Source: Eledone cirrhosa | Lineage: Eukaryota | NCBI GenBank assembly: GCA_964016885.1 | Contig: OZ024758.1 | Location: forward strand, 7,812,001 to 7,876,000 | Length of the DNA stretch: 64,000 nt | Direction: 5' to 3' | Shown here: piece after piece, positions 3,811-52,887 of the stretch | Numbering within the stretch: the first letter of the stretch is position 1 | How the letters are laid out: each line of letters opens with the position of its first letter | Made by a program: the position numbers and the translations under genes | Notes under the pieces: model-generated | What the model was told of the DNA's origin: nothing | Database searches by the model: none | What the model saw: the letters and a program-made list of their open reading frames with translations, nothing else

Positions 3811-4234
3811 TTAACCCTTTAGCATTTGCATTACTCTATATTTACTATTGAGGGTGGTGGATTGGCAGTATCGGTAGAGGGTCGGACGCCATGCTTTCCA
3901 GCATAGTTACGTCCCTTTACGATCTGAGTTCAGATCCCGCCGAGGTTGACTTTGCCTTTCATCCTTACGGGGTCGATAAAATAAAGTACCAGTAATGCAC
4001 TGGGTAATTGCTGGCCTTGTGCCTAAAGTAGAAACAATTACTCTATATTTACTATTATATTTTCATTGTAAAGGCTTTATCTTACATAATTATCTTACAA
4101 AATATTGAATCTATGAGATTTTGATGGAATTTATTTTGAGAATAATACCATAAAGTCAGTATGAGTGGCCAGTTTGAACAAACAGGTGAGAGAATTATCG
4201 CTGGATACGGCCAGTTTAAATGTTAAAAGGTTAA
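3811..4234. mobile_element. piggyBac-like MITE (TTAA target) carrying a nested SINE
   Basis: TTAA-CCCTTTAGCATTT ... AAATGTTAAAAGG-TTAA; internal sequence shared with about 8 other copies. Confidence 0.8.
3851..4037 (+). mobile_element. tRNA-derived SINE, family A (Meta/MESC-like central domain)
   Basis: A-box-like tggcagtatcgg, B-box-like gagttcagatccc, core gactttgcctttcatccttacggggtcgataaaataaagtaccag; 19-bp target-site duplication ttactctatatttactatt (3831-3849 / 4038-4056). Confidence 0.85.
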
Positions 4235-15954: not shown

Positions 15955-16150
15955 TTTCGTTTCTGAATTTGTTTAGCAAGATTCTCTATCTGAAAACGTG
16001 TGTTAAAACCGATATTGTTATACTTTGGGAGGGTCATATTGCCAATAAGAAACACACGCACCATTTTTTAATTTATAATAAATTGGAGTGAAAGCAACTG
16101 GTGCATGTGTTTCTTATTGGCAACATGACCCTCCCAAAGTATAACAATAT
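15955..16150 (-). mobile_element. (TA)n-embedded fold-back element P3, putative Penelope-like terminus
   Basis: 52-bp inverted arms 16012-16063 / 16099-16150 (50/52 match), unique tail on one side, (TA)n on both flanks. Confidence 0.55.
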
Positions 16151-17828: not shown

Positions 17829-18015
17829 GGGCGGTGGATTGGCAGTATCGGTAGAGGGTCGGATGTCATGCTTTGACGCATAGAGTTACGGCCCTTGCCA
17901 TTCTGAGTTCAAATCTCGCCGAGGTTAACTTTGCCTTTCATCCTTACGGGATCGATAAAATAAAGTACCGGTAATGTACTGGGTAATTGTTGGCCTTGTG
18001 CCAATAGTAGAAACA
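17829..18015 (+). mobile_element. tRNA-derived SINE, family A
   Basis: Full-length match to 3851-4037; duplicated flank ttattggttagaaagtag. Confidence 0.85.
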
Positions 18016-18099
18016 ATTATTGGTTAGAAAGTAGAAACAATTATTGGTTAAACAAAGTGAAATGTTTGGATATCAAAAAATCTATATATTAATGATATA

Positions 18100-19373: not shown

Positions 19374-19500
19374 ACGTTATTCCGGGTTGAATCGGAGGTA
19401 ACTACAGTAAGTAAGGTACTCAATACATTGCAGAGTATAAAAGTTTTAATATAGATGAGATTCTACAGGACTAGAACTGTTTCATTCTTTAGAAATCATC

Positions 19501-26951: not shown

Positions 26952-27288
26952 GGAGGCACATGGCTTAGTGGTTAGAGCATTGGCCTTGCAATCGAAAGGT
27001 TGTGAGTTCAATTCTTAGACCGGGTGATGTGTTGTTTCCTTGAGCAAGACACTTTATTTCACATTGCTCCAGTTTACTCAGCTGTAGAAATGAGATGATA
27101 AGGACTGGGTTCCCTATCATTCCACTGCAAAGTGGTCGTGTAGGCGCCACGGCAAAAAAGCACCCAGCACTCACTGTAAATGAGGTTGGTGTTAGGAAGG
27201 GCATCCAGCTGTAGAAATCAAGCCAGAATCAGTTCCCATCCCACCCTTGCAAGCAGGGAAAAAGCAGACGTAAAATGATGATGATGAT
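26952..27288 (+). mobile_element. Full-length CORE-type SINE, family B, with RTE-derived tail (tail type 2)
   Basis: A box tggcttagtgg, B box gagttcaattc, CORE-like domain, single copy of the 48-bp unit, RTE 3' tail with (ATG)n. Confidence 0.85.
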
Positions 27289-27413
27289 ATATATATGTAT
27301 GTATATATATATATATATATGTACACAAACATATATGTAACGTTCAAAGAGATAGAAGGCTAAAATGGACTGTAAGAAGAGGTAACGAAAAGTAAAAGTT
27401 ACCTGGTAATCTT

Positions 27414-28394
27414 TGGGCGTTTTTTTGTCGTGACACCTACATGACTACTTTACAGTGTGGACTGGGCACTTTTTGTCGTGACACCTACACGACTACTTTA
27501 CAGTGTGGACTGGGCGCTTTTTGTCGTGACACCTACACGACTACTTTACAGTGTGGACTGGGCGCTTTTTGTCGTGACACCTACACGACTACTTTACAGT
27601 GTGGACTGGGCGTTTTTTGTCGTGACACCTACACGACTACTTTACAGTGTGGACTGGGCGCTTTTTGTCGTGACACCTACATGACTACTTTACAGTGTGG
27701 ACTGGGCGCTTTTTGTCGTGACACCTACACGACTACTTTACAGTGTGGACTGGGCGTTTTTTGTCGTGACACCTACACGACTACTTTACAGTGTGGACTG
27801 GGCGCTTTTTGTCGTGACACCTACACGACTACTTTACAGTGTGGACTGGGCGCTTTTTGTCGTGACACCTACATGACTACTTTACAGTGTGGACTGGGCG
27901 CTTTTTGTCGTGACACCTACATGACTACTTTACAGTGTGGACTGGGCGCTTTTTGTCGTGACACCTACATGACTACTTTACAGTGTGGACTGGGCAGTTT
28001 TTGTCGTGACACCTACACGACTACTTTACAGTGTGGACTGGGTGCTTTTTGTCATGACACCTACATGACCACATGGCCACTTTACAGTGTGGACTGGGTG
28101 CTTTTTGTTGTGACACTTACATGACCACTTTATAGTGTGGACTGAGCGCTTTTTGTCATGACACCTACATGACCACTTTACAGAGTAGACTGGGTGCTTT
28201 TTGTCATGACACCTACATGACCACATGGCCACTTTACAGTGTGGACTGGGTGCTTTTTGTTGTGACACTTACATGACCACTTTATAGTGTGGACTGAGCG
28301 CTTTTTGTCATGACACCTACATGACCACTTTACAGAGTAGACTGGGCGGTTTTTGTTGTGACACCTACCTGACCACTTTACAGTGTGGACTGGG
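27414..28394. repeat. 48-bp minisatellite, about 20 units, derived from a SINE internal segment
   Basis: Unit ctttacagtgtggactgggcgctttttgtcgtgacacctacacgacta; gives the 16-aa periodic ORF 27441-28124. Confidence 0.95.
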
Positions 28395-29949
28395 GGAACT
28401 GTGAAGAGATTGAGGTGGTACTACAGTACTAAACACATTATAGAACTTTCTGTTATGATATTGAACATTGCAGAAATATTTGCTGACTACATCTCTTTTA
28501 AAGAATTATATTTACTTTGACTTCTAACAATTGGTTCATATAGCCTGCTGTGATTTAATGTTTCTAATTCTTAGACTTAGATGCTTGTTACCAAACTGCT
28601 TCTCTCTATCACCTCTATTAGATTACTACTGCTCTTTTATTGATGTAATAGCCTTATTTCACAATTTCACTGAAGGTATTGAGGACACAATGTTGCTCTT
28701 TTTCTCATAACTGGTGTTATATTAAATTATATTGGCTTGCATAAACATTCGGTTAAAATTTTCTTATCTAAAATTGCTTGTAGGAAACAATCTGTAATAT
28801 AAATCATTTCTTAGAGCAAGTTATATGATAGATGGAAAGCTCATTGCAATATAATTGGTATTCAGTTCTGTTTGTAACAAAGTTATCATACTTCTGTCTT
28901 GTCATTTTTTTTTTTTAAACAGTAAATTTGTGCTACAATATATTGTTCTTCGTGATACAGCTGGTTTTGATTTGGTGTGACTTTGAGAAAGCAGAATGTT
29001 CATAGTAGCTTTTGTCATTTCTTTTATCTCTTAGGCATTCAACAAAACAGTTTTATTTGATTCCACGAATCCCATCAGTGAATATTCTTTAAAATAAACA
29101 ACATTGTGTTTTAACTTATCTCTTCTTGATAAAACAACAACAACATCAATAACAACAAAACTAGTTATTCTGTTGGTAACATAAATATTTTTATATTGGA
29201 TTTGTTATCTAAATGAAGTGGAATTATTATTTTTGTGAAAAGCTGGAATGCAACTTACAACTTGAAAATATTCCCTATATGTTCAAAGAAAATCTCCCAG
29301 GCTTCTAATTAAGTTGATTATTTGTGTTTATCCAACCAGTGTATTTTTCTCTTGAAAACATTAATAATAATTCTAATGAGGAAGTTAACAACAATAACAG
29401 CACAACACTCATTTTGTTTTGCTCATTCTTCTAGTTATTTCAATGAGAATGATATATGAATGACTTTGATATCTTGCTTTTCACTCTGCCAAATTAATTG
29501 TTTCTTATTGATTATATTTGCAGTGATGCTTGTTATTCAGAATATAGCCATATCTGTTTGGATTCCATCTATATAATTACATTTCAATAGTTATTTATGC
29601 ATGATTTTAACAAAATTTTGACAGGAATGGATACTAATTTTATTTTCTATTATAGAATGCTCTTATAGAAATTCTGTGCTGGTAACTTTGATCAAAATAG
29701 TCTAGAAAACTAAAGCGAATTTGCTTACTCTTCTATGACTGACTGTTCCTTGAGTGAGCTTAAAAGGTTTTTGTCAGCAAATACAGTTAGTTCTGTTGTT
29801 AATGAAACTCTGAAACAATATTTTAGATTTCTAGGAAACTGAATGTAGGAAAATTGTTAGTGGCTTTTATTAATATTGTAAGTAAAGTTTGGCTGAGATA
29901 ATATATAAATTAAGGTGGACTAAATTTCCATTATAATTAATTCTGTAAT

Positions 29950-30182
29950 AAAGTTCGTTATCGAAGGAAAGACAGCCACCAAGAGCCTTGATTCTTTTTG
30001 GTTGGAAGAAGAGAGAAAGTTATCGTTACAAATTCTTCAGGCATTCCTGATGATTTCATATGAATGAAACAGTTCTAGTCCTGTAGGAGTTGTTTCTATA
30101 TATAATAATGATGCCTATACTCTACCAACATATTGAGTCCTGTTTTTAACTGTGGTTACTCCCCAACACCACTTGGAAACCT
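29950..30182 (+). mobile_element. P2 family copy (putative Penelope-like terminal repeat)
   Basis: Homologous to the copies at 19374, 31341 and 33144; contains a hammerhead core; ends at a TA run. The 5' boundary is uncertain. Confidence 0.6.
30043..30089 (+). ncRNA. Putative type I hammerhead ribozyme (P2 family)
   Basis: attc-CTGATGA(30047-53)-t-ttca-ta-tgaa-t-GAAA(30066-69)-cag-ttctagtc-ctg-TA|ggag. Stem III acag/ctgt, GUA triplet, predicted cut after 30085. Short stem I and an atypical U-U pair at the base of stem II. Confidence 0.6.
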
Positions 30183-31340: not shown

Positions 31341-31490
31341 TTACAAGACTAGAACTGTTTCATTTAGTTCTGCTCCTGTAGAAGTCATTTCTATATATAA
31401 TAAAGATGCCTATACTCTACCGATGTATTGAGTACCTTTTGTTAACAGTGGTTACTCACTCCCCTGACATGACTCGGGTATCTGCATATT
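31341..31490 (+). mobile_element. P2 family copy with short inverted 5' arm
   Basis: tacaagactagaactgtttca is the reverse complement of the GAAA/stem III region, joined to the sense 3' part; lies in (TA)n. Confidence 0.6.
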
Positions 31491-31849: not shown

Positions 31850-32913
31850 AGATTTATCTGCATATCTGCTTCATGAATCAACCAGTATATTCTCTAATCA
31901 GCCTTGGGTTACCAATCTCTAAACTACACATTTTCTTTACAATTACATCATAGAAGTCTGATTTTAGCCATTTAAGAACAAAAAGAGAGGGAAAAATGTC
32001 CTGTGTTATCTTTCTATTTCTTAATAGTTCTACTAATTGGCAAGCAATTAAAAGTAATTAGTGTAAGTTGTCAAATGTGGAACATGTCTGACATTTATTT
32101 TGGCTATTTTAAAATATAAATCTTTATTTTAACTCAGTGAACTTATCCACTATATCACAGCCTTATAACCTCAAGATAGGGATATCATCATCATTTGTCA
32201 TCATCATCGTTTAATGTCCATTATCTCACAGTAACATGAGTTAGACGAGTTGTCCTGATGTGAGACAAGTCAAATCAGATGACTGTGTCTCACTCATACA
32301 GACCTGTTTCTGGCTTGGTTTCTACAGCTGGATACTCTTGCTAATGCCAACCACATAATGTGGACTGGGCACTTTTGACCGTGGCACCAAAACAACCACT
32401 TTACAGTGTAGACTGTGTGCTTTTTATCATGTCACCAAAACAACCACTTTACAGTGTGGACATGTAAGATATATTTATCATATAGATTAAGTAAAATCAA
32501 ATATTAAGGCTTATGAAGAAATTATGTTATCACTATTTATAAAAAGTCATTAAAATTGATTGGCAGATTGAAATACAGAGCTCTTAAAATTTAGCTTCTG
32601 AGCAAATTTCGTTTAGTGTCTCATATTAATATAACTTCATGTATAATTCAAGTTGTACATTGTGTACAAGAAAACATTGCTTTTTTTTTAATAATTCCAT
32701 GTTTTTATATAAACTAAAAAAACTTCATTAAAATTTACAGCAGACCATTGCAAAATGAGTCAATTTCAACCTTTCACTTCAGCTATTTATGTTGCATTAT
32801 CTTACCCATGTGTATCCAGTTTAGAATAGTTACATTGGATCCTTATGTGTCATAAGCAGCTACCAAAAAGGCTTGGCACCAAGAATGGACATTAATATTA
32901 CATATATATATAT

Positions 32914-33129
32914 ATAGGAACAAGTAAGACCCCGATGGCTGAGCTCAAGCCGTTTCGACGGCTAATTCTGTCAGAATTCGACGGCTAAGTCTATCAGAAT
33001 TAGCCGTCGAAACGGCTTGAGCTCAGCCGTCGGGGTCTTATTTGTTCCTATTACCCACTCTACTACCCTAAGTATTGAGTACTTTGGTGCGTTATGGTCC
33101 ACCTGGTTCCTTACCACATTTCCTTCGTT
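32914..33129 (+). mobile_element. P1 fold-back element with hammerhead 3' half
   Basis: Inverted repeat 32914-33051; GAAA(33009-12)-cggct-tgagctc-agccg-TC-ggggtc; unique tail; (TA)n flanks. Confidence 0.7.
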
Positions 33130-33143
33130 ATATATGTATATAA

Positions 33144-33295
33144 GACTAGAACTGTTTCATTTATATGAAACAGTTCTAGTCCTGTAGAAGTCATTTCTAC
33201 ATATAATATAGATGTCTATACTCTACCAATGTATTGAGTACATATTTTAACTGTGGTGACCCTCTCCCCTGACATAACTCGGGTATCTACATATT
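33144..33295 (+). mobile_element. P2 fold-back copy
   Basis: 17-bp perfect arms 33144-33160 / 33165-33181 around ttat, immediately 5' of GAAA; (TA)n flanks. Confidence 0.7.
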
Positions 33296-36910: not shown

Positions 36911-37107
36911 TACATGTTCGTTGTACTGGAACTGTGATCTCTCAATTTGGAGAAGCAGTGACTCTCTGTTCACTGAGCTACACACACTATCGAGTAATGT
37001 TACTCCAAAGAAGGAAATCCCCGCTTCAGCTGATTGTATTTATGATCGTATTGTTTTGCTCATTACCCAAGATTCATGACAATAGGTAAATGTTAGCACT
37101 TTACCTA

Positions 37108-37350
37108 TTGACGTGACACCAACACCATCATTTTACAGTGTGGGCTGGGCTCTTTTTGTTGTGACACAAACACAATCATTTTACAGTGTGGGCTGGGCTC
37201 TTTTTGTTGTGACACAAACACAATCATTTTACAGTGTGGGCTGGGCTCTTTTTGTTGTGACACAAACACAATCATTTTACAGTGTGGGCTGGGCTCTTTT
37301 TGTTGTGACACCAATACAATCATTTAACAGTGTGGACTGGGTGCCTTTTG
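37108..37350. repeat. 48-bp minisatellite, about 5 units
   Basis: Unit ttttacagtgtgggctgggctctttttgttgtgacacaaacacaatca, a variant of the 27414 unit. Confidence 0.9.
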
Positions 37351-37734
37351 TATGTATATAAAAAATTAAGTAATAATGTAGATGATGTTGGGGGTGGAGT
37401 AGGGTGTGTATGAAATAGAACTAGGCTTAGTATAACATTTTTATTTTCAATGTATATGATTATTTTCATGTGAGTGTGTGTGTACAACCTAGGGAGCAGT
37501 TGTCTGAAATGAAAAGAAGAGTAAAAAAAACTTCATTTAACATAAAACCATGTAACTGAAGTGGGATTTCAGATTGATGTATTCTTGTTGTCATTTTGTC
37601 AGATATATTTATTCCAGTGGTCATGTCATATAGTTTTTGTTTACATGGTAAACAAAATCACTGATCAATTAATCATATCAATAATTTGAAATACAGTAAA
37701 CAATGTATGGATCAAATAATGTGTTTGTGTAGTC

Positions 37735-46500: not shown

Positions 46501-46670
46501 ATTACTAATATTATTATCTCTCCCCCTCCGAGGTTAACTTTGCCTTTCATCCTTACGGGGTCGATAAAATGAAGTACCAGTAATGTACTGGGTAATTGCT
46601 GGCCTTGTGCCTAAAGTAGAAACAATTATTATCTCTCCCCCTCTCTCTCTCTCTCTATATATATATATAT

Positions 46671-46883
46671 TATAATTGAATATAAAAGAAAAACGAACAC
46701 AGACATATACATATATGTGTTCAAATCGTAAGGGACCAGATAATTTGAACACATATATATATATGTCTGTGTTTGTTTTTCTTTTATATTCAATTATACT
46801 ATACGGCTCGGAAATATCTCTTTCTTAGAGCTATTTTGTTGTAAGAGACTATTTTGAGTTCCTAACTCAATATATACCTTTGA
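46671..46883 (+). mobile_element. (TA)n-embedded fold-back element P4
   Basis: 56-bp arms 46671-46726 / 46743-46798 (54/56 match), 16-nt spacer, unique tail, TA flanks. Confidence 0.55.
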
Positions 46884-46894
46884 TATATATATAT

Positions 46895-47094
46895 ATAGGA
46901 ACGAGTAGGACCCCGACGGCTGAGCTCAAGCCGTTTCGACGGCTAATTCTGGACTGAGTCCAGAATTAGCCGTCGAAACGGCTTGAGCTCAACCGTCGGG
47001 GTCCTACTCGTTCCTATTACCCACTCTACTACTACTAGTATTGAGTACTTTGGTGCATTATGGTCCACCTGATTCCTTACCACATTTCTTCCGT

Positions 47095-47095
<1 letters not shown>
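46895..47095 (+). mobile_element. P1 fold-back element with hammerhead 3' half
   Basis: 61-bp arms around the single base 46956 (60/61 match); GAAA at 46975-78; (TA)n flanks. Confidence 0.75.
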
Positions 47096-47130
<35 letters not shown>

Positions 47131-48103
47131 CATCATCATCGTTTAACGTCCGTATTCCACGCTTGCATGGGTTTGGACGGGAATTTTCCCACTTGAGGCA
47201 AGAGTGGTTGTCTTGCTCGCATAGGACTGTCTGGCGGGTTTTCTACGGCTGGATGCCCTTCCTAACACCAACCACATTTACAGTGTGGGACTGGGAGGTT
47301 TTTGCCGTGTTACCTACACGGCCACATTACAGCGTGGACTGTGTGTTTTTTTGTCGTGACACCTACACGACCTCGTTTGTTTCGGCCTGGACGTTGTGGT
47401 ACCAACATATATATATATATATTCCTCCATCCATCTAGCTATCCCTTCATCTCACCATCCCAAAGTAAAGATAAAGATGGTTCCAGACAGAATTCAAACT
47501 AAGAATCTTCATTTCTAAACTAATTCTCTTTATAGAATTGTAGCGTAGATGTAATAGAGACACTGTAAAGATGAGATTATTAGTCCATAAAATCTAAGAT
47601 GCTGAATCCATCCATCCATCTATCTTGCTTAAATCTCCTTCAGAATTATATTAAGGGTACACTTATCTGTGAAATACTCAACCACTTATGTGTTAATTCA
47701 CAATTTAGCTACACACTTGACTTAACAACTGAATGTTCATCATTGAAACTGTTGGAGGATCTATTAATATTTAGTTCTATATATGTTCTCAGTTCAAATC
47801 TTGCCATTGTTGTCTTTGTCTTGCAACCCTCCAGGCTTCACCATATAAATAATATTGTGTATAAGTCAGTGGCTTTCTACCAAGCTAAAAATAAAAAGAA
47901 ATCAATATTTTATTTAAATGTTGCTTGAAAAATAAAGAAAAGAAAGAGATATGCCATGATTTACCATTTTTTCCTCTTTCATTCTCGCTATTTCCAAATT
48001 CCGTTAACCCTTTTGATAACAAATTACCTGCAACCATCCTTGTTCCTAAGATACTAGGCTGTTTGTTTTAAAATTTTTATATTTATCTAAATGACTTTCA
48101 TCT

Positions 48104-50165: not shown

Positions 50166-50358
50166 ATAGGAACAAGTATGACCCCGACGGCAGAGCTCAA
50201 GCCGTTTCGGCGGCTATTTCTGGACTGAAATAGCCGTCGAAACGGCTTGAGCTCTGCCGTCGGGGTCATACTTGTTCCTATTACCCACTCTACTACACTA
50301 AGTATTGAGTACTTTGGTGCGTTATGGTCCATCTGGTTCCTTACCACAATTCCTTTGT
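50166..50358 (+). mobile_element. P1 fold-back element with hammerhead 3' half
   Basis: 55-bp arms 50166-50220 / 50227-50281 (54/55 match), loop tggact; GAAA at 50239-42; (TA)n flanks. Confidence 0.75.
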
Positions 50359-52220: not shown

Positions 52221-52412
52221 AGGGCGGTGGATTGGCAGTATCGGTAGAGAGTCGGATACCATGCTTTGAATCATAGAGTTACGTCCCTTTATGATCTGAG
52301 TTCAAATCCCGCCGAGGTTAACTTTGCCTTTCATCCTTACGGGGTCGATAAAATAAAGTACCAGTAATGTACTGGGTAATTGCTGGCCTTGTGCCTAAAA
52401 TAGAAACAATTA
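52221..52412 (+). mobile_element. tRNA-derived SINE, family A
   Basis: Full length; duplicated flank attattaata. Confidence 0.85.
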
Positions 52413-52887
52413 TTAATAAAATAATGCTGCTCTCATGCAATGACTAACACAACTTCTTCCGACAGCATTTTATGTAATACATTTATCATGAATATATTTC
52501 TAATGCAAAAGAGCCTACAGATATGGAGGTGGTCTTATATTCGATGTTGTTTTTTCAAGTATATAAGTATAAATGATGATGTACTCAAGCCTGTAGATGC
52601 TATAAAATAGCTTATACAATAAGGTCATGGTGCTTAAAAGACGAAAAAAAGAAGTTGCCATCAGTCATTATAGAACCAGGGGAGGTTTTGTGTGGTTATA
52701 TATCACAATTATAATCATTGATTACAGGTTGATGTTGTTTTTTCTGTCATAGATTGGATGGATCTGCATGTTACTATTTCTCTTGATCCTGTTATTAGTG
52801 TGGCCCAACTTGTGTTCTTAGATCAGACTTTGTTTCTTTCTGTGTGTCATAGCTATAACTGCTTCCTCAATCTAGTGCTAAGGGTAA

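Follow-up and report, generated by a model that had tools for sequence, protein, structure and literature searches.

Canonical insertions of endonuclease-bearing (EN+) Penelope-like elements consist of pseudo-long terminal repeats (pseudo-LTRs) in partial tandem, next to which lies an inverted copy truncated at its 5' end, and of a tail confined to one end (PMC8557442, PMC3846280). Self-priming has been proposed for the palindromes of Penelope (PMC3846280). We investigated a window of 64,000 nt from Eledone cirrhosa (GCA_964016885.1, contig OZ024758.1, positions 7,812,001 to 7,876,000, forward strand), in which the feature under study is a hairpin at window positions 46895-47095 with sister copies at 32914-33129 and 50166-50358. 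As described previously for these copies, each consists of an inverted arm, a sense arm and a one-sided tail of about 80 bp, flanked on both sides by (TA)n. The outer end of the tail-less arms is termed S1 and the end of the tail S2. We put the probability at roughly 0.7 that the hairpins, taken as a whole, are best explained as miniature Penelope-like insertions, each of which would have been made from two separately primed cDNAs joined by end-joining. That two priming events are involved is very likely. The structure, an inverted pseudo-LTR plus tail, is already known, and the hairpins are a known kind of by-product.

The long copies found here are textbook EN+ Penelope-like insertions with the same layout, and the stubs, which lack the open reading frame (ORF), are their minimal form. 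They differ from canonical insertions in that the tail measures about 80 nt and not 30-40 nt; moreover, the majority of copies lack the ORF and are stubs whose inner boundary is fixed. The available text of the two papers offers self-priming and the resolution of an intermediate by a nuclease as explanations, neither of which agrees with the pairing of ends observed here (PMC8557442, PMC3846280). For the lizard Poseidon element PAc (Anolis) it was reported that the protein, a predicted dimer, cuts and extends both target strands in vitro, that two reverse transcription start sites on the RNA bound the tail, and that the start site is alike on both strands and priming proceeds without homology (PMC11167929). 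Cutting and extension of both strands, the two internal starts bounding the tail, the AT-rich target and the uncleaved RNA as main template would be shared with the element described here. In the available text of the PAc work, the two starts are not paired within one event and no RNA reads ending at the ribozyme cut were found (PMC11167929), whereas here the ends are paired one of each and some lie at the predicted ribozyme cut. In L1 twin priming, the other target strand likewise supplies a second primer and the internal junction is end-joined, and full-length 5' ends of L1 and SVA carry an extra G derived from the cap; as described there, twin priming produces an inversion but no duplication, and its second site is used opportunistically (PMC11702581, PMC3287187), whereas here both sites are fixed and both cDNAs would copy the same stretch, resulting in an inverted duplication. 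A literature search, to which subscription papers were mostly inaccessible, found no account of paired S1/S2 ends, of a cap G or of strong-stop transfer in Penelope elements, and Penelope papers from 2004-2006 may hold related models.

Positions within the repeat are given in the coordinates of the parent copy L061, in which position 1453 corresponds to window position 46957; S1 is parent 1513 and S2 is parent 1591-1593. The sample comprised 204 loci (210 retrieved with tail or stem III queries, minus six duplicates) and 464 kb round the window, and yielded 517 arms and 212 head-to-head pairs; 13 head-to-head pairs lie within the 464 kb. A tail query returned 3015 first-look candidates in the 3.0-Gb genome, 40 of which were scored; the hairpin family has thousands of copies, far above chance. 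Thirty loci picked with a CTGANGA pattern bias the hairpin centres, so key counts were repeated without them. Uninverted sequence continued upstream in three of the first 30 loci. A set of 93 automatically picked long copies, which includes mis-picked hairpins and copies that are not independent because they lie inside one element, was used for the upstream sequence.

The outer ends of the arms fall on two sites 80 nt apart, at 1513 (87 arms) and 1593 (122 arms). They abut (TA)n in 126 of 133 cases at S1 and in 190 of 204 at S2, and a 3-nt match to (TA)n agrees with the earlier proposal that the ends match the AT target. S1 is an ordinary end of uninverted copies, since the 3' repeat of the parent L062 stops there and that of L061 ends at S2. 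The left end had been taken as the place where second-strand synthesis stops, which is not supported, since the uninverted, full-length L062 ends at S1 too. Among the 212 head-to-head pairs, 180 were S1/S2, five S2/S2 and two S1/S1, with 25 partial or unclassified. Since selection for the tail hides S1/S1 pairs, the 74 pairs that were not tail-selected were counted separately, giving 54 S1/S2, two S1/S1, one S2/S2 and 17 partial or unclassified pairs. Solo arms ended at S1 in 18 cases and at S2 in 13, and finding S1/S2 in 54 of 57 classifiable pairs corresponds to a p value of 6e-14. Bystander pairs and the unselected region alone gave S1/S2 in 35 of 37 classifiable pairs.

As a prediction test, the far ends were retrieved for 19 long insertions in which the inverted copy had already been classed. 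Opposite ends were found in 18 of the 19 (p 1e-4): the sense copy ends at S2 in nine of ten insertions with an inverted S1 end, and at S1 in all nine insertions with an inverted S2 end. In nine insertions the tail is thus present in the inverted copy and missing from the sense copy, so that the inverted copy is not a fold-back of the sense cDNA, which is what the preliminary description had assumed for the inverted arm.

In the preliminary description a single cDNA snaps back on stem II of its own hammerhead ribozyme and primes its own second strand, after which the left end is joined to the target. We scored the centres of 156 S1/S2 pairs, which showed that the tail-less arm is deeper, reaching at least 3 nt further, in 50 and the tailed arm in 44 (48 and 36 of 140 without the pattern-picked loci). 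Centres with a deeper tail-less arm are outside the reach of a fold-back of the tailed strand. Geometry as required for snap-back was present in eight centres, but the mirror image, which snap-back cannot make, was equally frequent with ten (six versus ten without the pattern-picked loci); 17 centres are loopless palindromes. In only nine of the 156 pairs does the tailed arm extend as far as the 5' strand of the stem II apex. Snap-back would account for the matching of arms by copy and for their correlated depths (see below), two further pairs (L122 and L168) can be read in this way as well, and deletions arising later at palindrome centres could blur the geometry. It leaves unexplained, in addition to the tails on inverted copies, that solo uninverted stubs stop in the same zone, that S1 also terminates uninverted copies, that three pairs join different subfamilies and that a sister family has its centre elsewhere. 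We regard it as very improbable.

Inserted bases were found at 78 of the 156 centres, and 43 were blunt or had a 1-base overlap. Fifteen of 41 inserts of at least 6 nt copy at least 7 nt of the neighbouring arms. Copying of adjacent sequence into inserts is the pattern of polymerase-theta-type joining. Altogether 145 centres are distinct, which supports a de novo origin of each hairpin. Movement of whole hairpins, either as an ordinary palindromic miniature inverted-repeat transposable element (MITE) or from a small number of palindromic master copies, would fit the subfamily marks common to many copies and the few centres that recur (up to three times). Centres are not inherited within subfamilies, however, the tail is one-sided, whereas a MITE has terminal inverted repeats at both ends and a fixed internal sequence, the parent encodes a reverse transcriptase (RT) and not a transposase, and the same ends occur in solo arms and long copies, which leaves this origin hardly any probability.

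To which extent the two arms share a donor can be read from their variants. At eight diagnostic columns, the signatures found in the tailed arms of the three window copies are common to 15, 19 and 11 of 122 sampled insertions. The variants that had been described as copy-private mutations mirrored in both arms are subfamily marks, because these signatures recur, and are therefore not private; rare mirrored variants do exist, with 22 cases (11 singletons) compared to a shuffled mean of 1.4 (maximum 5), some of which may represent small unsampled subfamilies. Each of the three window copies carries changes in one arm only, and since one-arm variants number 279 in total, the arms are not being homogenised. 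The earlier observation that arms match by copy was supported. In six pairs the arms disagree at two diagnostic columns or more; on inspection, three of these pairs (L003, L103 and L233) join different subfamilies, so the arms of a pair appear to come usually from one donor and sometimes from two. At L003:333 and L103:1756 the tailed arm is a mosaic, with an outer part from one subfamily and an inner part like the subfamily of the partner arm, as expected from template switch or conversion. The depths of the two arms are associated, deep arms being found opposite deep arms (6/2/3/145, p 1e-7), and both arms of L109 end at 1494. Such a correlation of depth is expected if both arms copy one RNA; in view of it and of the rare mirrored variants, it is fairly likely that both cDNAs usually copied the same RNA molecule.

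The inner ends of 435 short arms lie in the zone 1449-1460 in 296 cases and upstream of it in 24; the most frequent position is 1453. The distribution is the same for S1 and S2 arms, and the zone also contains the ends of 21 of 43 solo stubs. The initiator consensus was used for comparison with the sequence at this boundary, and position 1453 is the A of an initiator-like motif that is kept in both sequence variants. The base preceding 1453 was G in 28 arms, C in 21 and A in one; at control positions we counted A 32, G 15, T 15 and C 14 (p 8e-9). Where the upstream bases copy neither arm, it was G in six of seven cases compared to two of 18 at controls. Long copies have T at this position in 74 of 93 and G in six of 93, and the hairpin at 46895 carries such a G. 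This excess of untemplated G suggests the start of a capped transcript. For L1 and SVA, the published signature of the cap is an additional G where full-length insertions have their 5' junction (PMC3287187, PMC11702581), and an internal, initiator-type promoter was reported for Penelope of D. virilis (PMC2377424). We conclude that 1453 is probably a capped RNA polymerase II start, with the initiator inside the stem II apex, in which case the 5' repeat copy would yield only half a ribozyme.

Two separately primed cDNAs could also have ended at an RT stop or trimming point in the stem II apex instead of a capped RNA end. The position of the boundary in the 3' strand of the apical hairpin, its spread across 1449-1460, the long cDNAs passing through it and the frequent C before 1453 fit a stop. 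On the other hand, the ratio of G to A before 1453 is 28:1, the apical hairpin varies in strength and register among subfamilies while the boundary is constant, and one junction described below (L272) reads as an A-run, a G and then 1453. A stop or trimming point is an unlikely source of the boundary. We also considered a 3' splice site: the sequence at 1444-1454 is acceptor-like, with a pyrimidine run and AG in all parents, the extra G would be the end of a short upstream exon, and a Penelope intron ends at its hammerhead (PMC4209133). The bases upstream of the G vary, however, and a search of the flanks of short arms for spliced upstream parent sequence gave two matches, neither at splice signals. 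We judged the splice-site explanation rejected.

A second group of ends coincides with the predicted ribozyme cut: seven of 27 non-microhomology ends in 1472-1499 are located at 1494, the base immediately 3' of the cut (five of 25 when two ambiguous ends are set aside, p 0.002 for this position taken singly). These ends may well be copies of ribozyme-cleaved RNA. Clusters at 1474 and 1480-81 were also considered as RNA ends but rejected, since they are microhomology joins.

As had been described, the sense arm corresponds to the 3' half of a hammerhead of type I, and the parents fold as a three-way junction: in unconstrained folds three helices surround the core in several parents, 89% of the cells in the hammerhead helices are paired and G10.1-C11.1 is present in 15 of 15. 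The cleavage triplet of this type is present as well. The missing half had been expected to read CUGANGA, which was found in none of the 93 picked long copies; they read UUGANAA in 54 cases, with all four bases seen at position 7, and CUGAGAA in 18. Pair 3-8 of the core is therefore U3-A8 in 54 copies, a C3-A8 mismatch in 18 and C3-G8 in none. A pattern with CTGANGA upstream of stem III had 38 matches, and those listed are hairpin centres or chance flanks without a true parent. An Rfam scan of the window gave no matches. The U3-A8 minimal hammerheads of Cercyon from Schistosoma have the same core covariation, a long helix II and the G10.1-C11.1 pair; they differ from the hammerhead described here in that its helix III has 5-6 bp, enough for a monomer fold, and in that there is a C3-A8 sub-lineage (PMC4209133). 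In Schistosoma elements, motif pairs on opposite strands 100-700 bp apart were reported (PMC4209133). In a non-LTR retrozyme the repeats are arranged in tandem and every unit holds an entire hammerhead (10.64898/2026.07.22.740005); the stubs are dispersed, arranged head to head and contain half a ribozyme each.

Five events were found in which ORF sequence is joined to a stub (L271, L272, L266, L261 and L285). In this order, the ORF sequence ends at 2426, 2409, 2425, 1911 and 2481 and the stub restarts at 1454, 1453, 1468, 1494 and 1494; the L272 junction consists of four A and one G followed by 1453. We read these jump products as cDNA that had reached the 5' end of an RNA and then moved to a 3' end. 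The first three leave the ORF at parent 2409-2426, within 18 nt, and two of the junctions are A-rich. The clustering of these three independent ORF exits points to a site of premature polyadenylation within the RT ORF.

Based on these data, the following course of integration is proposed. The element protein would cut both strands of the (TA)n target, and one cDNA would be primed at S1 and another at S2, on opposite strands of the cut target. Both short cDNAs are predicted to run off the 5' end of the RNA, probably copying one RNA, and would be joined head to head by host end-joining, which would result in a stub hairpin. In retroviral strong-stop synthesis, priming takes place near the 5' end of the RNA, the cDNA runs off at the cap and is transferred to a 3' end. 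The stretch 1453-1593 may act like the retroviral R region, so that stubs would be strong-stop cDNAs integrated without transfer and transfer would give tandem pseudo-LTRs; we give this slightly less than an even chance. It is an analogy only, since the primer is target DNA, two cDNAs are made and the product is already integrated. A more tentative proposal is a fixed two-primer reaction, in which a dimer primes both cut ends at two staggered sites of one capped RNA, and the cDNAs either join (stubs) or jump (pseudo-LTRs).

Stubs might alternatively spread in the manner of a short interspersed element (SINE), with transcripts from stub sense arms mobilised in trans and a new hairpin formed at each insertion. 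Stubs far outnumber long copies in the tail-selected samples, an internal promoter would travel with them, and one sampled stub subfamily has no long copy among those picked. ORF-bearing parents match most subfamilies, though, the jump products show that RNAs from 1453 continue into the ORF, and the lizard protein, according to the available text, needs ORF sequence downstream of the start sites that is missing in stubs (PMC11167929). SINE-like spread is improbable; it would change the donor only and leave the joining mechanism unaffected.

Several observations weigh against two end-joined cDNAs on a capped RNA. Only one of 27 ORF-bearing events starts in 1449-1460 and 18 of the 27 run upstream through the zone, which would be explicable by efficient homologous transfer on full-length RNA or by a longer or circular template. 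The base before 1453 is C almost as frequently as it is G, which is not fully explained, and the boundary is soft, with 45 of the 435 ends at 1449-1452 and a second peak at 1457. The cluster at 1494 was noticed before it was tested, and the start site and the cleavage are both deduced from scars in the DNA. The three chimeric pairs need two RNAs or a template switch. Both priming sites share the 3-nt target match, although priming by PAc needs no homology and treats the strands alike (PMC11167929). No compensatory changes were found in the alignment of the parent hammerhead helices, and the C3-A8 sub-lineage (18 long copies, for instance L257 and L269) has a mismatched core that is predicted to be inactive, yet many copies; because of both, there is no sign of selection on catalysis. 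Since most loci were best matches to tail queries, the sample is biased to young, tailed copies, and all proportions of end combinations come from samples and are not exact genome-wide counts.

The parent is an endonuclease-bearing Penelope-like element. Both parents, L061 and L062, are arranged as pseudo-LTR, ORF and pseudo-LTR with a unit of 3.5 kb, both contain a frameshift, and insertions of the element have partial-tandem pseudo-LTRs, a 5'-truncated copy in inverted orientation and a one-ended tail. The preliminary description had anticipated a Penelope-like origin and an uninverted parent carrying an RT and a GIY-YIG nuclease, and these two copies provide it. The single ORF encodes a telomerase-like RT: an AlphaFold model (predicted local distance difference test, pLDDT, 83) had telomerase RTs as best Foldseek matches (E 3e-8). 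A model of the C-terminal domain (pLDDT 90) gave the GIY-YIG nucleases T4 EndoII and Hpy188I as top matches, which are weak (E 0.13 or worse), and the domain has the invariant Y, YxG, R, H and N pattern of GIY-YIG. Pfam scans of the parent ORF and five relatives and a PDB sequence search with an alignment gave no significant match; among 283 relatives at E <= 1e-20, many carry a precomputed PF26215 and one PF00078. With Hydra-1_Obim and the Hydra clade the parent shares the C-terminal nuclease, DKT, the CxCX5C linker, CxxC and CxH, the lack of CCHH and the (TA)n target; the clade is defined in the available text by these motifs together with RWK, a length below 3 kb and a canonical hammerhead (PMC8557442). 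The parent has RWR, the 3.5-kb unit and a U3-A8 core with a long stem II, and because of these deviations it was filed as Hydra-like and not as a member; by eye it was judged a family different from Hydra-1_Obim. Naiad identity, which had been suspected from the RT motif, was rejected since the nuclease is C-terminal. Just upstream of the 5' repeat of the parent (L061:57-730) lies a decayed transposase-like reading frame, which may resemble Tc1/mariner.

The coordinates of the three hairpins in the window are compiled in Table 1. Their pairwise identity is 83-88%, and the inverted arms of all three end at one base, as noted before, which corresponds to S1. In the copy at 32914, the centre contains an insert of 23-24 nt that is in part copied from the arms. 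In the copy at 50166 the tail-less arm is the deeper one, so that this geometry is not obtainable by snap-back of the tailed strand.

Table 1. Hairpins in the window and parts of the copy at 46895 (window coordinates).
Feature	Position	Strand	Remarks
Copy 1, arms	32914-32970 / 32995-33051		
Copy 2 (feature under study), arms	46895-46955 / 46957-47017		
Copy 3, arms	50166-50220 / 50227-50281		
(TA)n target, left of copy 2	46884..46894	.	
Copy 2, tail-less arm	46895..46955	-	putative cDNA primed at S1 (parent 1513); inner end parent 1453
Copy 2, lone G between arms	46956..46956	+	T in most parents; putative copy of the RNA cap
Copy 2, sense arm	46957..47017	+	parent 1453-1513; in order: initiator-like start, stem II 3' strand, conserved G12-A14 strand (from 46975), stem III with palindromic loop, predicted cut 46997/46998, stem I 3' strand, S1
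Copy 2, tail	47018..47097	+	between the two priming sites; end is S2 (parent 1591-1593)
(TA)n target, right of copy 2	47098..47130	.	
Copy 1, whole	32914..33129	+	S1 arm 32914-32970, sense arm 32995-33051, tail up to 33129
Copy 3, whole	50166..50358	+	tail-less arm to parent 1453 (50166-50226), tailed arm only to 1459 (from 50227)

A sister hammerhead stub family with a related tail is present in the window at 33144-33290, 31342-31483, 30040-30159 and 19397-19486. Both cores were read by eye in nine of its hairpins; each of these combines a tailed end with a tail-less one, and in the same nine both arms contain a canonical core, with the centre just upstream of it. The centre is therefore family-specific and the ribozyme need not be destroyed; its loss in the daughter copy, which had been put forward as a consequence of the fold, need not follow. 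Stem I strands covary between subfamilies of the sister family, and one of its copies shares a (TA)n tract with the 32914 copy. A cap G was also considered for this family but rejected, since that G belongs to stem I and covaries with the partner strand.

A third hairpin-plus-tail element (46666-46885), with 61-bp arms and a tail of about 80 bp and ending in (TA)n, adjoins the 46895 copy on the left and has relatives in L092, L101, L117 and L201. At 16012-16150 there is a short inverted repeat with 45-bp arms and a 49-nt spacer, with related sequence beside L030. Tandem arrays of 48 bp at 27277-28504, 37008-37451 and 32344-32474 are related to a dispersed repeat at 47288 and 62081, and a SINE-like dispersed repeat has at least 8-11 copies in the window, for instance at 3911-4043, 17890-18022, 46524-46631 and 52283-52415.

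Thousands of tiny, independently made insertions provide countable data on the mechanism of integration. The pairing of one S1 with one S2 end in an insertion speaks against self-priming as published. The additional G, together with the ends at the predicted cut, opens a way of mapping start sites and ribozyme activity with nothing but DNA sequence. If the reading proposed here is correct, the stubs would be a genomic record of RNA 5' ends, and the ends at 1494 would be the first sign, as far as our literature search reaches, of a U3-A8 Penelope hammerhead cleaving in vivo. If a fixed two-primer reaction is at work, a single rule would cover the tail, the inverted copy and the pseudo-LTR. If strong-stop synthesis and transfer take place, telomerase-related elements would follow a logic parallel to that of LTR elements.
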